Below, in pieces: positions 350-5,739 of a stretch of DNA of 6,095 nucleotides. Under the pieces are notes generated by a model. That model was not told the DNA's origin and ran no database searches. It worked only from the letters and a program-made list of their open reading frames with translations. A program made the position numbers and the translations under genes. The stretch comes from a virus (Duplodnaviria; Heunggongvirae; Uroviricota; Caudoviricetes): the IMG/VR virus record IMGVR_UViG_2703718800_000011, one strand, 5' to 3'. Each line of letters opens with the position of its first letter. The stretch's first letter is position 1.

Positions 350-640
350 TTACCCCCTTGCGCGTGGTTTCTTCACACCCGGAACACTGGCGCGGCCTTC
401 CGCCACATCCTGCCCCCGGCCGGTCAGCTCTGCGATGAAATAACCGTTAATCAGAACGCGTTTGCGCACCAGTCCCTGTTCGGCAAGCCAGGCAATGTGG
501 GTGTGAACGGTGTCGCGGGACACGCGGTGACCGTAATCATCCAGACAGTCCTGGAGCACGGATTCACCCAGTTCACCGTTGTAATCTGCCAGCGACCGCA
601 GAATGACCAGACGCTGATCTTCAGTAATGAAATCACTCAT
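350..640 (-). CDS. Hypothetical phage late protein in the Mu gp26 position
   Basis: 96 aa ORF (MSDFITEDQRLVILRSLADYNGELGESVLQDCLDDYGHRVSRDTVHTHIAWLAEQGLV...). ATG at 640 is preceded by AAGGAAAAAAA and overlaps the upstream stop as ATGA. Helix-rich, possibly winged-helix-like; function not recognised. Confidence 0.55.
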   Translation of the reverse strand: MSDFITEDQRLVILRSLADYNGELGESVLQDCLDDYGHRVSRDTVHTHIAWLAEQGLVRKRVLINGYFIAELTGRGQDVAEGRASVPGVKKPRARG

Positions 641-945
641 TGCGTTTTTTTCCTTACAGCCTGCTCCAGCAGCAGTTCGTTCTGATAGGAGACAGAGCGG
701 AGCGTGGCGTTCGTGGTTTTCAGTTCACCCCGCAGGGTCACGATTTCCACATTCAGACGGTTGACCTCGGCTTCTGTCGGCAGTGACGACAGGCGGGTTT
801 CCACCTTCTCAACGCGGTCGGAGAGTTTTTCAAAGGCCTCGCGGGGGACAAACGTTTTGCGCATCAGCGCCATGAATATCCCGCCAGCGGTTGCCGTCGC
901 CGAAAGGATCGGCACAACATAATCTTTAACGATGCTGACCCACAT
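637..945 (-). CDS. Membrane-anchored coiled-coil protein in the Mu gp25 position (possible lysis accessory or releasin-like protein)
   Basis: 102 aa. N-terminal hydrophobic segment VVPILSATATAGGIFMALM is followed by a charged, heptad-like region (EKLSDRVEKVETRLSSLPTEAEVNRLNVEIVTLRGELK). Strong SD GGAGG 6 nt upstream of ATG 945. Functional call is by position only. Confidence 0.55.
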   Translation of the reverse strand: MWVSIVKDYVVPILSATATAGGIFMALMRKTFVPREAFEKLSDRVEKVETRLSSLPTEAEVNRLNVEIVTLRGELKTTNATLRSVSYQNELLLEQAVRKKTQ

Positions 946-1153
946 GACGGGCCTCCATGATGTTCTGGCAGTTCACACAACGGATGGCATCCGGCACAGC
1001 AACAAGACGTGCGGCGGGGATCTCTCCGCCACAGTCTGCGCAGACACGTCTGCCCGGAGCATCCATTGCCCGGCACTTACGTGTCAGCCGGTTACAAAGG
1101 GCGCGTTCTGATCCCCGCTCCATCACAGCCTGAGCACGATCTGAATCATCCAT
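926..1153 (-). CDS. TraR/DksA-family C4 zinc-finger protein
   Basis: 75 aa with CADCGGEIPAARLVAVPDAIRCVNCQ, i.e. CxxC-(17 aa)-CxxC with the conserved IP..R and C..CQ spacing typical of phage and plasmid TraR-like proteins. SD AAGGAAAAG lies upstream of ATG 1153. Confidence 0.7.
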   Translation of the reverse strand: MDDSDRAQAVMERGSERALCNRLTRKCRAMDAPGRRVCADCGGEIPAARLVAVPDAIRCVNCQNIMEARHVGQHR

Positions 1154-1162
1154 AGCTTTTCC

Positions 1163-1534
1163 TTACTTCGTCTTTCCTGCCGGAACAGCAGGCGTTCCGG
1201 CCATATCAGTAAATTCATGTTGTCGCCGCGCCTCCAGACGACGAATACTGGCCTTGTCCACGTTGCAGTTCTTGATCACCGCCAGCAGTTGCAGGTTGTA
1301 AGTGACCGATGCCCCAAACGTGAACGGCTCCGGCGCAGGAGGCACCAGGCAGTCAGCCAGCCATTCAGCGGGGATCGGCACCGGCTTCACAGGCACGTAT
1401 TTCACAGACGGCCCGGCGCACCCGATCAGCCACATCATCAGGAACAGGGGCAGAGGCCGCAGGCACTGCTGCCAGCGACCGGCGGACAACGCTCTGCTGC
1501 CCCTCGCTGTGCTGAATGTTCTGTTGTTTTTCAT
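1163..1534 (-). CDS. Putative o-spanin (Rz1-like outer-membrane lipoprotein), overlapped architecture
   Basis: In a different frame from the i-spanin, beginning inside it and extending past its stop. Contains a hydrophobic stretch ending in the lipobox-like LIGC, followed by a proline-rich mature region (VPVKPVPIPAEW...VPPAPEP). Start chosen at ATG 1534 (MKNNRT...); the true start is uncertain and the whole call is weaker than the endolysin. Confidence 0.45.
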   Translation of the reverse strand: MKNNRTFSTARGSRALSAGRWQQCLRPLPLFLMMWLIGCAGPSVKYVPVKPVPIPAEWLADCLVPPAPEPFTFGASVTYNLQLLAVIKNCNVDKASIRRLEARRQHEFTDMAGTPAVPAGKTK

Positions 1535-1754
1535 TCGTGGCCGCCTCACTGATTTGTGAAATGAGTTGCAGGGTGCGTTGCTGGTTTGCCAGCACCAGAC
1601 GGGCTTCGTCCCGTTCGCGCACAAGCACATGATTATTGTCCTCAAGGCGCTGCGTCTTCTGGTGCATTCCCCATACCACGGCAGCCAGCACGCTCATCAC
1701 CCCCAGCGCCGCCATACAGCCTCCGGCAATCAGGGCCGGTAAGGGATTATTCAC
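1365..1754 (-). CDS. Putative i-spanin (Rz-like inner-membrane spanin component); start uncertain
   Basis: Hydrophobic segment LPALIAGGCMAALGVMSVLAAVVWGM followed by a long charged, coiled-coil-like region (HQKTQRLEDNNHVLVRERDEARLVLANQQRTLQLISQISEAATNEKQQ). Track ORF starts at 1886, but that overlaps the endolysin 3' end. Candidate starts: GTG 1754 (overlaps the stop of an 18-codon upstream ORF as GTGA), ATG 1715 (GGAGG 4 nt upstream, but leaves a short TMD), ATG 1865. Confidence 0.5.
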   Translation of the reverse strand: MNNPLPALIAGGCMAALGVMSVLAAVVWGMHQKTQRLEDNNHVLVRERDEARLVLANQQRTLQLISQISEAATNEKQQNIQHSEGQQSVVRRSLAAVPAASAPVPDDVADRVRRAVCEIRACEAGADPR

Positions 1755-1827
1755 CGCAGCCACAGCACACCCCGCAGCAGCACAACGGCACACAGCAGCG
1801 CAATCATGAGCGGTCGCCAGAAGCGGT

Positions 1828-2328
1828 TCAGACTTTCGGCAAATCGTAGCGACATAACCATTCATCCGCCGAACGGCGGGCCTCAAGACCGGGGAGTTTC
1901 ACCCCCTTCGAATAAATCCAGCGGATGTACTGCTTACAGGACGCGGGCATCTGCCCGGCATTGATCAGGCGCAGAAGCGTGGAGTTGCGGAAGTTCGTTT
2001 CACCAGCCCAGAAGATCCACGAAGCCAGCGCCACCGTCTGACCACGGGTAAGCGGCACCTGAACACGCCGATCAATGGCCGCAAAGGCCCATTTCATGTC
2101 CTTTTCCAGTAGTTCCAGGCATTCTTCATCCGTCAGGGTCATACCCGGTTTCACATCCGGGCCGGTATGGCCGTAACAGATGGTTGGTGTACCGGTGGGA
2201 TCGATATACGTGGAGTTTTCTTTCCCTTCCCAGTAACCGGTGTAATGCGTGGTAATGGTGAACGTCCCGGCACCGGCCATAACAAGGGCAATCAGCTTTT
2301 TACGCAGTGGTGCGGGGAGTTTTGGCAT
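1828..2328 (-). CDS. SAR (signal-anchor-release) endolysin, phage lysozyme family (GH24, T4/P21-type)
   Basis: 166 aa. Weakly hydrophobic Gly/Ala-rich N-terminus LIALVMAGAGTFTITT typical of SAR domains. E...D...T catalytic arrangement in WEGKENSTYIDPTGTPTICYGHTG, then the GETNFRNSTLLRLINAG and GLEARR motifs that I recall from P21 R-type lysozymes. Confidence 0.85.
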   Translation of the reverse strand: MPKLPAPLRKKLIALVMAGAGTFTITTHYTGYWEGKENSTYIDPTGTPTICYGHTGPDVKPGMTLTDEECLELLEKDMKWAFAAIDRRVQVPLTRGQTVALASWIFWAGETNFRNSTLLRLINAGQMPASCKQYIRWIYSKGVKLPGLEARRSADEWLCRYDLPKV

Positions 2329-2330
2329 TG

Positions 2331-2366
2331 TTACGCTGTCTCATGATGTTCTCTGAGTCAGCGTAA
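2331..2366. promoter_or_regulatory. 36 bp imperfect palindrome abutting the endolysin start codon
   Basis: Plus strand TTACGCTG-t-CTCA-tgatgttctc-TGAG-t-CAGCGTAA: 12 complementary bp in two blocks around a 10 nt centre. It lies in the 71 bp gap between the Mor/C-like stop (2400) and the endolysin ATG (2328). Could be an operator for a dimeric regulator or an mRNA hairpin covering the endolysin ribosome-binding region. Confidence 0.3.
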
Positions 2367-2399
2367 CGGTGAAGGAAAGGCGGCAGGCTTTGCGGAATA

Positions 2400-2822
2400 T
2401 CAGAAAAGTGGCGGTTGCGTTCTTGCCAGATGCAGACGGCGCTGTTCGCGTATGACGGTATAAATCTGGGTTTCTGACATCCTGTAATGGCGGCGCAGGG
2501 TTTCAATTTTTTCGCCCTGGCTCCAGCGGGAAAAAATCTCATTATTGCGCAGTTCGGTGAAAAGGGATTCACCGACCGGGAGATAATAACCACGCCCGCC
2601 CATGTACCCGGCCTGTGCGGCCGCAACTTTACGGGCAAGCATTCCTGCCTGAGCAGGTTCAATCCCCTGACGGTGCAGTTCAGCACTGATCACATCAACC
2701 AGGTCCCGCAGCGTGCCGGGCCAGTTCTTTTTCAGCTCATCATCAGGAATGTCATCCAGACGGTCAATCAGCGCGTGCAGCTGTTCGCTGTCACCAAACA
2801 TGCTCATCTGTGTTTCAGCCAT
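2400..2822 (-). CDS. Mor/C-family transcriptional activator (Mu middle/late activator homolog)
   Basis: 140 aa. N-terminal acidic region with MFGDSEQLHALIDRLDD; C-terminal GGRGYYLPVGESLFTELRNNEIFSRWSQGEKIETLRRHYRMSETQIYTVIREQRRLHLARTQPPLF matches my recollection of the Mor family (GG..YIP, RN..I...F.G, HTH, and the Mu Mor C-terminus ...RRMRRLKYRQYQPSLL). GGAGG SD 5 nt upstream of ATG 2822; located immediately upstream of the endolysin. Confidence 0.75.
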   Translation of the reverse strand: MAETQMSMFGDSEQLHALIDRLDDIPDDELKKNWPGTLRDLVDVISAELHRQGIEPAQAGMLARKVAAAQAGYMGGRGYYLPVGESLFTELRNNEIFSRWSQGEKIETLRRHYRMSETQIYTVIREQRRLHLARTQPPLF

Positions 2823-2854
2823 ACCCGCCTCCGGTCATCATTACACAGGGCAAG

Positions 2855-2888
2855 TTTAAAATAAAAATCCCGCGCTGTGGCGGGATTT
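2855..2888 (-). terminator. Intrinsic terminator hairpin, copy 1 (strong for minus-strand transcripts)
   Basis: AAATCCCGC-gctgtg-GCGGGATTT at 2865..2888: perfect 9 bp stem, 6 nt loop. On the minus-strand RNA the stem is followed by UUUUUAUUUU. Sits 43 nt upstream of the Mor/C-like ATG. Confidence 0.6.
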
Positions 2889-2930
2889 AGAGGCGCTGTA
2901 AATCATAACCCGAAATGAGCTGTGTATTTA

Positions 2931-2959
2931 TTGATCATTTTCCGGTGTAACTATATGAT
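2931..2959 (+). promoter_or_regulatory. Candidate sigma70-type promoter for the plus-strand cargo gene
   Basis: TTGATC (2931..2936), 17 nt spacer, TATGAT (2954..2959) on the plus strand in an AT-rich tract, about 200 nt upstream of ATG 3163. Pattern match only. Confidence 0.3.
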
Positions 2960-3162
2960 AAAGATCGTTTTTATTTTTAAAAATACAAACCCTGAAGGAG
3001 TTTTTCTTATCAAAAAGCTTGTGCATATTGCGGGTTATTGTTGTTTCATCAACATGAAAACCAATTATCCCAACTCTTAAAGCACACCAGGCTTGCTCCA
3101 GTGCAAAAACAAATAATTTCAGTCTGCCTGACAGCGTTCCACCGGAATAAAGGAAGATATCC

Positions 3163-3585
3163 ATGAAACAACCTCCATCTTTGCTTTTATCGTGCCCACC
3201 AGAACTGGCCCATGAACTCAATGATCTGGCGAAAGAGTATAAACTTACAAATCATAATATAGAAGCAGCAACACTTAGTGCTGCCGGAAGCGATATTGTA
3301 TTGATCGTTCTGGCCGCAGCTTCATGCGATGGGTTCTGGCAGGCATTAGCCAGTATGTTTCAGACGTGGTTACATCGTAAACCAACAAAACAAACACCCC
3401 CGGAAAAGAAAGTTATTCGTAGCGTCATTGTTCGTAGCTGGGAACACTATCAGGAGACAACTAAACAAACTGAATTTTATAACTTTGATGCTGATGAGCT
3501 GGCTAAATTGATAGCGTTATATGAAAAACCAGATGAAACAATTGGTTGCATAATCCCGTCAGAAACGGAAATTCAGGAAAAATAA
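3163..3585 (+). CDS. Hypothetical protein encoded by an opposite-strand, AT-rich moron cassette; one predicted hydrophobic helix; family not recognised
   Basis: 140 aa. The only convincing plus-strand ORF in the window. ATG 3163 is preceded by AAGGAAG with a 6 nt spacer. Stop TAA (3583..3585) runs directly into terminator copy 2. Composition is visibly more AT-rich than the flanking phage genes. Hydrophobic segment SDIVLIVLAAASCDGFWQALASMF; C-terminal half charged and acidic. Confidence 0.6.
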   Translation: MKQPPSLLLSCPPELAHELNDLAKEYKLTNHNIEAATLSAAGSDIVLIVLAAASCDGFWQALASMFQTWLHRKPTKQTPPEKKVIRSVIVRSWEHYQETTKQTEFYNFDADELAKLIALYEKPDETIGCIIPSETEIQEK

Positions 3586-3608
3586 AATCCCGCACTGTGG
3601 CGGGATTT
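3575..3608 (-). terminator. Intrinsic terminator hairpin, copy 2 (terminates the minus-strand early operon after the GemA-like gene; also follows the plus-strand cargo gene)
   Basis: AAATCCCGC-actgtg-GCGGGATTT at 3585..3608: 9 bp stem, 6 nt loop. On the minus-strand RNA it is followed by UUUUAUUUUU. Begins 4 nt after the GemA-like stop (3612). Near-identical to copy 1 over about 31 bp. Confidence 0.65.
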
Positions 3609-3611
3609 GGG

Positions 3612-4121
3612 TTAACAGGGGAATGATTTTTCATACAGCCTGCAAACGCGCTCATAACTCATCACTGCACGCTCCGACATATCCAGGGCTGCCAGCATTT
3701 TGCGGCGGTGCCAGCGTTTGAGACGCTCCAGCACATCAGAGGCCAGCTCGGGGTGTTGCTCCAGCCACTGCCAGTTAGCCACACCTTCGCCGCCGTTCTG
3801 CGCGGCCGTCTGCGATTGCACCCAGCGGTTAAGGGCCGTTTCCGCACCATCAGAAATAAAGCCCTGCCGGTGCATCACTTTCCAGATGGCGCGAATTTTG
3901 GCGGTCACCGTACCCGGCTTTAAGGCCCGGTTAACCGGTTTCTGACGCACTTTAAAACCGCGTTTTTTGAAAACATCCAGTACGCGGGATAACTCATCCG
4001 GTGACATATCCCGGCAACTGGCTTTACCGGTGGCTGCCAGCAGTGCGGATGTATAGGTTTCATCATCCAGAGCAAGCTCGCGTTTTGCCACATGAATGGC
4101 AGATATCAGTTTTCCTCTCAT
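3612..4121 (-). CDS. GemA-like protein (Mu gp16 family, DUF1018-type)
   Basis: 169 aa. N-terminus MRGKLISAIHVAKRELALDDETYTSALLAATGKASCRDMSPDELSRVLDVFKKRGF fits my recollection of the gp16/GemA signature (LI..IH.AK..L.LDD..YR.LL...TGK.S..DM...EL..VL). Start overlaps the upstream stop as ATGA. Confidence 0.7.
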   Translation of the reverse strand: MRGKLISAIHVAKRELALDDETYTSALLAATGKASCRDMSPDELSRVLDVFKKRGFKVRQKPVNRALKPGTVTAKIRAIWKVMHRQGFISDGAETALNRWVQSQTAAQNGGEGVANWQWLEQHPELASDVLERLKRWHRRKMLAALDMSERAVMSYERVCRLYEKSFPC

Positions 4122-4429
4122 ACCGTATTTACCTTTTTACGGACATGGAAAGCCTTTTCTGGCTCATTCCACCGGATATGATGCGTTGGCGGAATAATCA
4201 TTATGTGCCAGCCATCTCTGGTTGTTATTCGGCAGAAAAACTCACCGCTGTATAACACAATGGCCTGCTGAATAAGCGCATCCGCAGCCAGCTCAAGCAG
4301 ATATCTTTTATCAAAAAGGCTGATAATTTTCCGGCATAACCACCGGGTGATAACAAATGCGCCGAAAAACGATGTGATATATAAACACCAGAACAGCAGA
4401 GAAATATTGTCCGTTATTTGCTCATCCAT
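4118..4429 (-). CDS. Small membrane protein, unknown function
   Basis: 103 aa with one clear transmembrane segment ISLLFWCLYITSFFGAFVITRWLC. GGGAGA SD 6 nt upstream of ATG 4429. Sequence looks more AT-rich than its neighbours. Translationally coupled at both ends. Confidence 0.55.
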   Translation of the reverse strand: MDEQITDNISLLFWCLYITSFFGAFVITRWLCRKIISLFDKRYLLELAADALIQQAIVLYSGEFFCRITTRDGWHIMIIPPTHHIRWNEPEKAFHVRKKVNTV

Positions 4430-4754
4430 TGTGTATCTCCCGTAATTCCGGTAAAGCCGAAATATGGCACCAGTGCGTCACCTGTCCATCCTCATCTTCA
4501 AGGCAGGCTCCGGTTTCTTCATCAACAAAAAAACCTTCATACCCGATATGGCCGATGCGCAGCTCCTGTCGGTGACCGTACTGAACAATCAGTACAACAG
4601 CCTCCATATCAGGCGGGAAAGCATCATTCAGTGAATGCCAGGGATAACCGCGCAAATCCCCGAAATAAACCCCGGTCAGGGTTCCGCCACAGACCGGCAT
4701 CCCGGCGGCACATACCAGAGGTTCGTCTGATTCAACAAATAAGGTCGTTATCAT
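4422..4754 (-). CDS. Hypothetical acidic protein, unknown function
   Basis: 110 aa (MITTLFVESDEPLVCAAGMPVCGG...FVDEETGACLEDEDGQVTHWCH...). GGGAG SD 8 nt upstream of ATG 4754. ATGA overlap with the upstream gene and 8 nt overlap with the downstream one. Confidence 0.5.
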   Translation of the reverse strand: MITTLFVESDEPLVCAAGMPVCGGTLTGVYFGDLRGYPWHSLNDAFPPDMEAVVLIVQYGHRQELRIGHIGYEGFFVDEETGACLEDEDGQVTHWCHISALPELREIHNG

Positions 4755-5305: not shown

Positions 5306-5536
5306 TCACCCCCTGACTCGCTTTTCAGCAGCATAAAACTCATCAGACAGAATTTCGGTCATTTTCTGATTTGCGGGTTTTACGCCGCACTCAAGGTAAA
5401 TCACATCGTCAACGCAGAACCACTTCACAGGGCCAAACATGATTGCCGAGAAATCAATACCCAGCCAGAACAACAGTGCATCGGTTCTGGCATACGTGAC
5501 GGGCGAATATTCACGCCACAGAAAGGTTTTCGCCAT
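5306..5536 (-). CDS. Hypothetical small protein
   Basis: 76 aa (MAKTFLWREYSPVTYARTDALLFWLGIDFSAIMFGPVKWFCVDDVIYLECGVKPANQKMTEILSDEFYAAEKRVRG). Stop lies 4 nt before the next start. Its 5' part overlaps the 104-aa ORF in another frame; weak SD. Confidence 0.45.
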   Translation of the reverse strand: MAKTFLWREYSPVTYARTDALLFWLGIDFSAIMFGPVKWFCVDDVIYLECGVKPANQKMTEILSDEFYAAEKRVRG

Positions 5537-5739
5537 AAGTCGCGATGAAAAGGATATTTGTCATCCATAAAGCGCAGCCCCTTAAAACAAAAGCCACTGA
5601 TACTGAATTCAAATACCGACCGGCACGCAACATTCAGCACGGCCTCAAGGCGTTTCGCCTCATCTTTTACCGTCTGGCAGTCCTGCTGGTATTTTTGCCA
5701 CGCAGCCAGCGCGGCAGGGTTTGATGTTTTAAAGAACAT
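5425..5739 (-). CDS. Hypothetical small protein; 3' extent doubtful
   Basis: 104 aa ORF whose ATG overlaps the upstream stop as TAATG. The N-terminal part (MFFKTSNPAALAAWQKYQQDCQTVKDEAKRLEAVLNVA) looks protein-like; the C-terminal part is Cys/Trp-rich and overlaps the 76-aa ORF, so the real gene may be shorter or frameshifted. Confidence 0.3.
   Translation of the reverse strand: MFFKTSNPAALAAWQKYQQDCQTVKDEAKRLEAVLNVACRSVFEFSISGFCFKGLRFMDDKYPFHRDLWRKPFCGVNIRPSRMPEPMHCCSGWVLISRQSCLAL

Follow-up and report, generated by a model that had tools for sequence, protein, structure and literature searches.

A predicted holin-free lysis operon of the Mu type, carrying an additional small open reading frame, in a Mu-like Escherichia coli prophage

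The locus described here raises the question of how a phage might lyse its host when its lysis genes include an endolysin, two spanins, and no evident holin. It occupies positions 637-2328, on the minus strand, of a 6,095-nt stretch of Caudoviricetes DNA (IMG/VR record IMGVR_UViG_2703718800_000011), which in its entirety is referred to below as the window. Our reading, to which we assign a probability of roughly three in four, is that this locus serves a transposable, Mu-like E. coli prophage as its late lysis operon, in which an endolysin of the signal-anchor-release (SAR) type, a releasin, and spanins would achieve lysis in a holin-free manner. The cassette is, as such, a further instance of the releasin system already published for phage Mu, and is mostly ordinary. 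The sole element not already present in the databases and literature that we searched is a conserved micro-open reading frame (micro-ORF), encoding 36 amino acids, located between the genes for the endolysin and the inner-membrane spanin (i-spanin).

At 99.9% identity, the window matches a Mu-like prophage of 39.4 kb that resides within bcsA of E. coli STEC2018-607 and carries a Mu transposase, a MuB-like ATPase, GemA, a Mor/C-family gene, and portal and head genes of the Mu type. Window copies with approximately 94% identity were found in ~230 of 5426 complete E. coli genomes, many of them O157:H7, and these O157:H7 copies (~94% identical) carry the same lysis cassette; a scan of genome contigs performed with the endolysin returned a single locus, in Citrobacter braakii. 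All credible genes between positions 350 and 2822 lie on the minus strand, and their order is that of Mu genes C-22-23-23.1-24-25-26-27, to which the region is fully syntenic. Gene identities, gene order, motifs, and family memberships, as well as the absence of any ORF with multiple transmembrane domains (TMDs), are direct observations on this DNA and, for the last of these, on its 99.9% relative.

Endolysin, DUF2730 protein, and the search for a holin

In Mu, gp22 is a SAR endolysin, and gp23 and gp23.1 are the spanins (Chamblee et al. 2022, mBio, PMC9239132). The same study reported that no Mu membrane protein behaves as a holin, and that gp25, a membrane-tethered cytoplasmic protein of the DUF2730 family with an N-out/C-in topology, is needed for gp22 release (PMC9239132). 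The endolysin gene of our cassette (1828-2328, minus strand) encodes a 166-aa GH24 muramidase (PF00959, E 6e-37) homologous to gp22, to which it is 39% identical, and its catalytic motif E34-X8-D43-X5-T49 aligns with E37/D46/T52 of the Mu enzyme. Its first 27 residues (nt 2248-2328) were assigned as the SAR domain based on their composition. These begin with MPKLPAPLRKK, a stub that holds four basic residues (K3, R9, K10, and K11), and continue with a 16-residue uncharged stretch, LIALVMAGAGTFTITT, 56% of which is made of A, G, S, or T, and whose peak Kyte-Doolittle hydropathy (KD19) of 1.16 is under the level of ordinary TMDs. The R9-K10-K11 cluster is kept in all tiers of relatives, these being graded here by their divergence. 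Judged by its sequence, this N-terminus is a SAR signature and fits the SAR description given for gp22; experimentally, a SAR endolysin is recognized as a membrane-tethered enzyme that can be released by a pinholin or by depolarisation (PMC9239132). As an alternative to tethering, signal peptidase may cleave the protein after A18-G19-A20. A departure from this arrangement was seen in one related locus (L062), where the endolysin (3001-3585; 52% identical to that of the window) is extended to 194 aa and runs over the i-spanin start, the DUF2730 gene (4075-4496) is broken into two frames, and the micro-ORF profile described below has no match; this cassette may be decayed or mis-assembled.

The gene for the DUF2730 protein (637-945, minus strand), which is the fifth after the endolysin gene when the micro-ORF is included in the count, encodes a 102-aa homologue of Mu gp25. 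The protein matches PHROG 736 (E 9e-32) and PF10805 (E 7e-20; 71.4 bits with a cutoff of 24.9), its residues 6-97 corresponding to profile positions 3-101 of 102, and it is similar to gp25 in direct comparisons, with 34.4% identity over 91% of the query by tblastn (E 1e-9) and 35% in a pairwise MAFFT alignment. The gp25 coding sequence is labelled 'releasin' in GenBank AF083977, and its position relative to its neighbours is as found here. An uncharged, TMD-like stretch covers residues 9-28 (KD19 1.80), and is preceded by an 8-residue N-terminus with a net charge of 0 and followed by R29-K30, which aligns with R-R in Mu; in the 82% tier of relatives, the junction between TMD and cytoplasmic domain is likewise R-K or R-R. 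Given the N-terminus of zero net charge and the basic pair past the TMD, the positive-inside rule predicts a C-in topology, which would leave a C-terminal cytoplasmic domain of 74 aa, close to the ~70 aa of the family. An AlphaFold2 (AF2) single-sequence model, which served for secondary structure only because of its low confidence (predicted local distance difference test, pLDDT, of 63), is all-helical, with helices at residues 2-28, 35-52, and 58-101. The exact 102-aa sequence is present on at least 1000 contigs, under the name 'DUF2730 family protein'. Based on these comparisons, the protein is an established DUF2730 family member paired with a gp22-type SAR muramidase, and belongs to type I, as direct similarity to gp25 is the criterion that separates this type from types II and III; by homology, it would be expected to function as a releasin, a class defined by being needed to release and activate the cognate SAR endolysin and by not being lethal alone.

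For the holin search, we looked for a small late membrane protein, usually with 2-4 TMDs and with a match to a known holin family, among all ORFs of at least 35 aa on both strands of the 39.4-kb prophage assembled from STEC2018-607; functionally, a holin is recognized by lethal triggering when the membrane is depolarised, as in assays with DNP or cyanide. At KD19 >= 1.6, no ORF with two hydrophobic segments was found in either the window or the full prophage, and at a relaxed threshold (KD17 >= 1.3) all two-segment candidates were either antisense to annotated genes or themselves spanin frames. No holin name appears in the annotation of the prophage by the Prokaryotic Genome Annotation Pipeline (PGAP), and no match to a holin family was obtained for any of the small proteins tested, among which were the micro-ORF product and a DUF1378 cargo protein, each with one TMD. 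The latter is encoded at the far end of the same prophage, from a Gin-type recombinase to com/mom (L041 5250-8102; NZ_CP075697 2935249-2938101), within a lambdoid, Stx-phage-like cargo block that comprises a 693-aa DUF6645 protein, presumably NanS-esterase-like, the 59-aa DUF1378 protein with its one TMD, and a DUF826 protein. A DUF6645/DUF1378/DUF826 block precedes the S holin in Stx phages. When checked for an adjacent S-type holin, the block in our prophage had none, and the next ORFs showed neither a family assignment nor a TMD pair. Outside the lysis cassette, the only membrane proteins of the window are the product of a cargo ORF (described in the last section) and a 103-aa early-region protein (4118-4429; PHROG 17269) with one strong N-terminal TMD (KD19 2.09).

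In DUF2730 phages with non-SAR endolysins, multi-TMD genes are found directly after the endolysin. Pasteurella phage AFS-2018a carries in this position a 2-TMD protein, ORF16 (DUF2644), and Klebsiella phage Kp4866-3 (L042 1070-1688) encodes a gp18 homologue and a 4-TMD protein, an arrangement similar to that of Mu gp19, after a non-SAR GH108 endolysin. By analogy, such a gp18/gp19-like module may represent the holin module of Mu-like phages with cytoplasmic endolysins; in Mu, gp19 is the product of a dispensable middle gene.

These results are in line with an earlier note on this DNA, which had proposed a SAR-type N-terminus for the endolysin, had described the small protein at 945..637 as an N-terminal TMD followed by a coiled coil, and had seen no classical multi-TMD holin. 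The TMD-like stretch was located at residues 9-28, the helical nature of the remainder agrees with the low-confidence AF2 model, and the hydropathy scan extended the lack of a multi-TMD holin from the window to the 39.4-kb relative. The note's statement that Mu lyses with a SAR endolysin and with gp25, a membrane protein described as a releasin and not as a holin, proved accurate (PMC9239132), and its suggestion that the 102-aa protein is the gp25 counterpart is supported by family, slot, and identity (alignments of the two proteins with Mu Lys and gp25 gave 39% and 35%, respectively), the function being assigned by homology. Neither homology of the 102-aa protein to an unrelated family nor, in the 39.4-kb relative, a canonical holin gene outside the window was found, each of which the note had named as evidence against its proposal.

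By homology with Mu, the endolysin would then behave as a SAR protein, depend on the DUF2730 protein, and be expressed late in the cycle. In the mechanism that we propose, a C-type activator encoded upstream would switch on the late promoter, and the GH24 muramidase would be exported via Sec and remain inactive, tethered in the inner membrane by its weakly hydrophobic N-terminal SAR helix, with the basic cytoplasmic stub (K3, R9, K10, and K11) helping to retain that helix. The DUF2730 protein, with one TMD in an N-out/C-in orientation and a helical cytoplasmic domain, would act as the releasin and help the SAR helix to leave the bilayer, allowing the enzyme to refold and degrade murein. The overlapped i-spanin/outer-membrane spanin (o-spanin) pair would then disrupt the outer membrane, and a canonical holin would take no part in the process.

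A conserved micro-ORF between the endolysin and i-spanin genes

The micro-ORF (1751-1861, minus strand), which is absent from the earlier note, encodes a peptide of 36 aa, or 34 aa if translation begins at ATG 1855 (MVMSLRFAESLNRFWRPLMIALLCAVVLLRGVLWLR), and bridges the stop of the endolysin gene (1828) and the start of the i-spanin gene (1763), overlapping the endolysin gene by 34 nt and the i-spanin gene by 13 nt. Its product is predicted to have a short basic N-terminus and one hydrophobic helix (KD19 peak 2.33). Across 27 unique relatives the frame stays open, and no indel interrupts it. Over the 64 overlap-free nt, there are 11 variable sites at first, 6 at second, and 15 at third codon positions, and comparison of these 64 nt to the 92-97% tier yielded 50 synonymous and 20 non-synonymous codon changes in the micro-ORF frame, compared to 13/59 and 5/64 in the other frames. 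The corresponding Nei-Gojobori ratios of the non-synonymous to the synonymous proportion of changes (pN/pS) are 0.32 for the micro-ORF frame, and 1.14 and 1.75 for the others. In the 82% tier this signal is weak (pN/pS 0.84 over 20 codons); in a simulation where the substitutions observed in that tier were placed at random, however, the micro-ORF product was more conserved than expected (p 0.004-0.03), whereas the i-spanin frame over the same bases showed no constraint (p 0.24-0.77). In two more distant loci (L060 and L061), where the endolysin is 49% identical and the cassette is fully syntenic, a 37-aa ORF, MVMSEWIARCAERHWRSGITGLLIMVIILRGILLCLA, occupies the same slot and is 45% identical to the micro-ORF product by BLASTP (E 1e-7). 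The micro-ORF persists, in fact, in three divergence tiers, down to 49% endolysin identity.

When 19,653 translated segments were searched with a local hidden Markov model (HMM) of the micro-peptide, all loci of the lineage were matched, and no other segment was. HMMER, run exhaustively against 1.84 billion representatives, recovered a single true relative, 34 aa long and from the 82% tier, besides a spurious protein of repetitive sequence, and searches against Pfam, PHROG, and PADLOC returned no match for the micro-ORF product. The micro-ORF is absent from Mu and from the Mu-proximal loci L063, L104, and L113. PGAP leaves it unannotated, and it is sporadically called 'Uncharacterised protein [Shigella sonnei]', which shows how micro-ORFs inside phage lysis cassettes escape annotation. 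Taken as sequence evidence, these data make it very probable that the micro-ORF is a translated gene, and the micro-peptide is a member of the operon in this sub-lineage. Two other identities were considered and rejected. As a relocated Mu gp20, the peptide gave no alignment by BLASTP, and as defence genes, both the micro-ORF and the cargo proteins yielded no PADLOC hit.

With regard to its role, modulation of lysis appears most likely, and a lysis-related function is plausible in view of where the gene lies, how it overlaps each neighbour, and what has been reported for Lcc6, a small single-TMD protein required for SAR-endolysin/pinholin lysis in Shewanella phage LambdaSo (bioRxiv 10.1101/2024.01.23.576932). 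More specifically, we propose only tentatively that the micro-peptide is an unrecognised component of SAR-endolysin lysis control in a Mu-like sub-clade, for example a pinholin-like depolariser, or a partner or antagonist of the releasin. If this were true, 'holin-less' lysis of the Mu type would have at least two architectures. In phage P2, the slot corresponding to that of the micro-ORF holds the timing gene lysA, and LysA is a small membrane protein that provides an analogue. The micro-peptide is, in any case, a cheap testable candidate for an extra factor in lysis timing.

Because the micro-peptide could affect when lysis occurs, 'holin-less' is not proven for this lineage, and the 36-aa peptide might itself be the timing element, either as a minimal pinholin-like protein or as a regulator of SAR release, with the DUF2730 protein being auxiliary or redundant. 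The coding constraint on the micro-ORF and its retention down to 49% endolysin identity would agree with such a role, as would the Lcc6 precedent of a single-TMD protein required for LambdaSo lysis (bioRxiv 10.1101/2024.01.23.576932). Its slot is, moreover, that of the multi-TMD holin-like genes of other DUF2730 phages, and the overlap with both neighbours suggests co-translation. The peptide, however, matches no holin family, and has hardly any soluble part beyond a single hydrophobic helix, 13-19 residues long, within which an Arg is conserved. Its pN/pS is only 0.84 in the 82% tier, over those 20 codons, Mu lyses without such a gene, and L063, L104, and L113 are built without it. In Mu, furthermore, depolarisation delays lysis and does not trigger it (PMC9239132). 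On balance, we regard it as unlikely that the micro-peptide, rather than the DUF2730 protein, governs lysis in this lineage.

Weighing the releasin role of the DUF2730 protein

Our reading of the locus as a holin-free operon of SAR endolysin, releasin, and spanins has a number of points against it. The holin search relied on Kyte-Doolittle windows and not on a trained predictor, and beyond the window it covered the genome of a relative and not the window's own. The micro-peptide is an uncharacterised extra component of the operon. DUF2730 proteins also accompany cytoplasmic, non-SAR endolysins, and the general role of the family is unsettled (PMC9239132); among its members, function has been tested for Mu gp25 alone. 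The dependence of gp22 on gp25 is conferred by K6 and K7 of gp22, while K9 is irrelevant (PMC9239132). In our endolysin, A6 and P7 align with Mu K6 and K7, and the basic R9/K10/K11 abut the hydrophobic stretch, where Mu has K9; this difference leaves the sequence uninformative about any dependence on the DUF2730 protein. Finally, the cytoplasmic domain of the 102-aa protein carries a net charge of +3 and lacks His, compared to -1 and two His in gp25. Besides the initiator Met, only P56, G73, L91, L92, and E94 are invariant across six DUF2730 members, and in a conserved S-H-Q motif the His found in the five other aligned members is a Tyr in the 102-aa protein.

Several of these same points could be taken to mean that the DUF2730 protein has no part in endolysin release, and that the SAR endolysin escapes spontaneously on accumulating, while the DUF2730 protein has some other late role, such as one tied to the packaging genes for gp26/gp27. 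The co-occurrence of the family with non-SAR endolysins, the loss of the K6/K7 determinant from its position, the divergent cytoplasmic charge, and the paucity of invariant residues (five, the Met aside) would all be compatible with such a scenario, and the DUF2730 gene does abut those for gp26 and gp27. Against it, the combination of type-I similarity to gp25 with a gp22-type SAR muramidase reproduces a pairing of demonstrated function, and the endolysin has a conserved cytoplasmic stub with four basic residues, and such a stub is reported to keep SAR domains locked within the bilayer (PMC9239132). Because gp25 also speeds the release of three unrelated SAR endolysins (PMC9239132), exact matching of residues might not be needed. 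We consider a DUF2730 protein unrelated to endolysin release to be quite unlikely.

If the pair is indeed functional, it would argue against both the conserved Ser/His protease model and the requirement for an acidic microenvironment or anionic domain, ideas on a Ser/His catalytic centre and an anionic domain having been raised in the Mu study (PMC9239132). With the basic residues of its SAR stub shifted, and its cytoplasmic domain non-anionic and devoid of His, a functional pair would also provide a ready-made test of which releasin residues matter.

A Mu-like prophage of E. coli O157:H7 Sakai, Sp18, is predicted to be intact and its DNA was found packaged (Asadulghani et al. 2009, PMC2669165). 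The O157 relatives of the window presumably belong to the Sp18 lineage, and the packaging of Sp18 would support functionality only indirectly. That the cassette is a decaying, non-working remnant, with host lysis left to the holins of a co-resident lambdoid prophage, appears very improbable, for although the 99.9% relative has a gp436-family gene interrupted by a stop and a tail-fibre region that is truncated, and the window has an 82-nt frameshifting deletion in an early gene, every gene of the lysis cassette is intact and conserved over ~230 genomes, the micro-ORF bears signatures of purifying selection, and Sp18, of presumably the same lineage, is packaged.

Remaining genes of the region and comparison with known systems

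The i-spanin gene (1365-1763, minus strand) encodes 132 aa from a GTG at 1763 (PHROG 214, 'Rz-like spanin', E 5e-31), with a TMD peak hydropathy (KD19) of 2.22. This GTG aligns with an ATG in the 82% tier, which makes it the best-supported start, and is the same start called by PGAP in STEC2018-607. A longer i-spanin (ORF 1365-1886, or a start at ATG 1865) was rejected, as five of the seven 82%-tier sequences have lost ATG 1865; over positions 1764-1827 this longer frame would have accumulated 5 synonymous and 64 non-synonymous codon changes, with conservation no better than chance. The start called by PGAP in O157:H7 differs from that in STEC2018-607, and RefSeq labels for the i-spanin are inconsistent, being 'hypothetical protein' for a 132-aa product and 'endopeptidase' for one of 142 aa with another start (L045 1565-1993). 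The gene for the Rz1/LysC-like o-spanin, the outer-membrane lipoprotein subunit of the pair, encodes a precursor (1163-1534, minus strand; 123 aa) that matches PF23793 LysC (E 2e-16) and PHROG 3001 (E 3e-42), and has an L-I-G-C lipobox with Cys39; its ATG at 1534 and lipobox, L-[IT]-[GA]-C, are kept in all tiers. PGAP calls instead an 80-aa 'LysC' (1163-1405), which begins past the lipobox Cys. The o-spanin gene overlaps the i-spanin gene by 170 nt in a different frame, the same overlapped architecture as Mu 23/23.1, and judged on sequence features the two proteins are a two-component spanin pair.

Next to the spanins lies the gene for a TraR/DksA-type C4 zinc-finger protein (926-1153, minus strand; PF01258, E 2e-12; PHROG 54, E 3e-19), in the position of Mu gp24. 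The spanins and the TraR-like protein follow the endolysin as the earlier note had described, on the minus strand, with family matches to PHROG 214, PF23793, and PF01258. Similarity to gp24 itself is weak, with the Cys4 ribbon alone being aligned (E 0.018), and due to this restricted alignment we did not retain the protein as an established gp24 homologue; a TraR protein also fills this slot in Mu-like phages of Shewanella and Klebsiella. The cassette is bounded downstream by the gene for a winged-helix protein resembling gp26 (350-640, minus strand; PHROG 436, E 8e-40), which corresponds to Mu gp26 in length and position, and is followed by a gp27-like small terminase gene (~1-347), called 'phage protein Gp27 family protein' by PGAP.

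Upstream of the endolysin, a Mor/C-family gene (2400-2822, minus strand; PF08765, E 1e-30) encodes the C-type late activator, which is 40% identical to Mu C (E 7e-38) compared to 28% to Mu Mor (E 1e-16), and has the same position relative to the endolysin gene as Mu C. By analogy with the position of Plys in Mu, a late, C-dependent promoter would be expected in the intergenic region at 2329-2399 (minus strand). Alignment of this region with Mu Plys revealed only a weak shared stretch containing CCGCA, too weak to call a C-binding site, and a sigma-70 scan upstream of the endolysin gene gave no consensus hit, as expected for an activator-dependent promoter. In both the window (2400-4121) and the STEC2018-607 prophage (L003 20000-33000), PGAP recognizes one Mor/C-family gene, with GemA followed by a terminator and then the C-type gene, and a separate Mor is absent. 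Because there is a single Mor/C gene, and counterparts of genes 18-20 are absent, the middle/late regulatory cascade must differ from the Mor-then-C scheme of Mu.

Between GemA and the activator, the window carries a 720-bp AT-rich segment (2858-3608; 40-42% GC, compared to 55-61% around it), flanked by a 31-nt direct repeat (2858-2888 and 3578-3608, 90% identical) in which a T-run comes after a terminator-like hairpin. Within the segment lie a plus-strand ORF of 140 aa (3163-3585) with one hydrophobic segment and no hit in Pfam, PHROG, or PADLOC, and a minus-strand ORF of 78 aa (2928-3164). The insert is missing from loci L002 and L011 and from the O157 copy, where the repeat occurs only once, and L025 has a different insert of ~1.4 kb, so that this looks like a variable cargo (moron) site. 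Further along, at 5523-5524, the window has AA in place of an 84-nt segment of the STEC2018-607 prophage (L003 25523-25606), a net deletion of 82 nt that frameshifts an early-region gene, a single 171-aa ORF in L003, into ORFs 5306-5536 and 5425-5739; alignments with L002 and L011 break at 5523-5524 as well, and leave a comparable stretch of these loci unaligned. In STEC2018-607, the prophage (L003 11500-11919 and 15117-15204; L041 8816-10775) looks partly degraded, with the internal stop in the gp436-family gene and a fragmentary tail-fibre region, and PGAP annotates a 'tRNA-OTHER' between its head-morphogenesis genes.

The prophage lineage that carries this cassette is common in Shiga toxin-producing E. 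coli (STEC), including O157:H7, and the O157 copies, which share the cassette, differ from the window in lacking the 720-bp cargo between GemA and the C-type activator. Compared to known systems, the micro-peptide resembles both Mu gp20 and LambdaSo Lcc6 in being small and having a single TMD. In spite of this, gp20 (39 aa) is encoded by a middle gene, is dispensable for lysis, and shares no sequence similarity with the micro-peptide, and Lcc6, whose gene lies elsewhere in its phage, is larger, having a cytoplasmic tail of 43 aa in addition to its TMD.

With Mu, the cassette shares the order of C activator, SAR GH24 muramidase, overlapped spanins, Cys4 zinc-ribbon protein, DUF2730 protein, gp26-like winged helix-turn-helix protein, and gp27, and a multi-TMD holin is found in neither phage. 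Differences do exist, however. The extra 36-aa membrane-peptide gene separates the endolysin and i-spanin genes here, whereas in Mu the end of gene 22 contains the start of gene 23; our o-spanin falls in the Pfam family of P2 LysC; the protein in the gp24 position is a clear TraR/DksA member, whereas Mu gp24 is under Pfam thresholds; and a single Mor/C-family gene is present, with no counterparts of Mu genes 18-20. Within the SAR domain, the stub is basic at R9, K10, and K11 here and at K6, K7, and K9 in Mu, and the helix has two Gly here compared to five in Mu by our count (six Gly in a seven-position stretch according to PMC9239132). The identification of this cassette adds little by itself, and its value is a comparative one, in that it offers a natural pair of the gp22/gp25 type whose endolysin and DUF2730 protein are 39% and 35% identical, respectively, to those of Mu.

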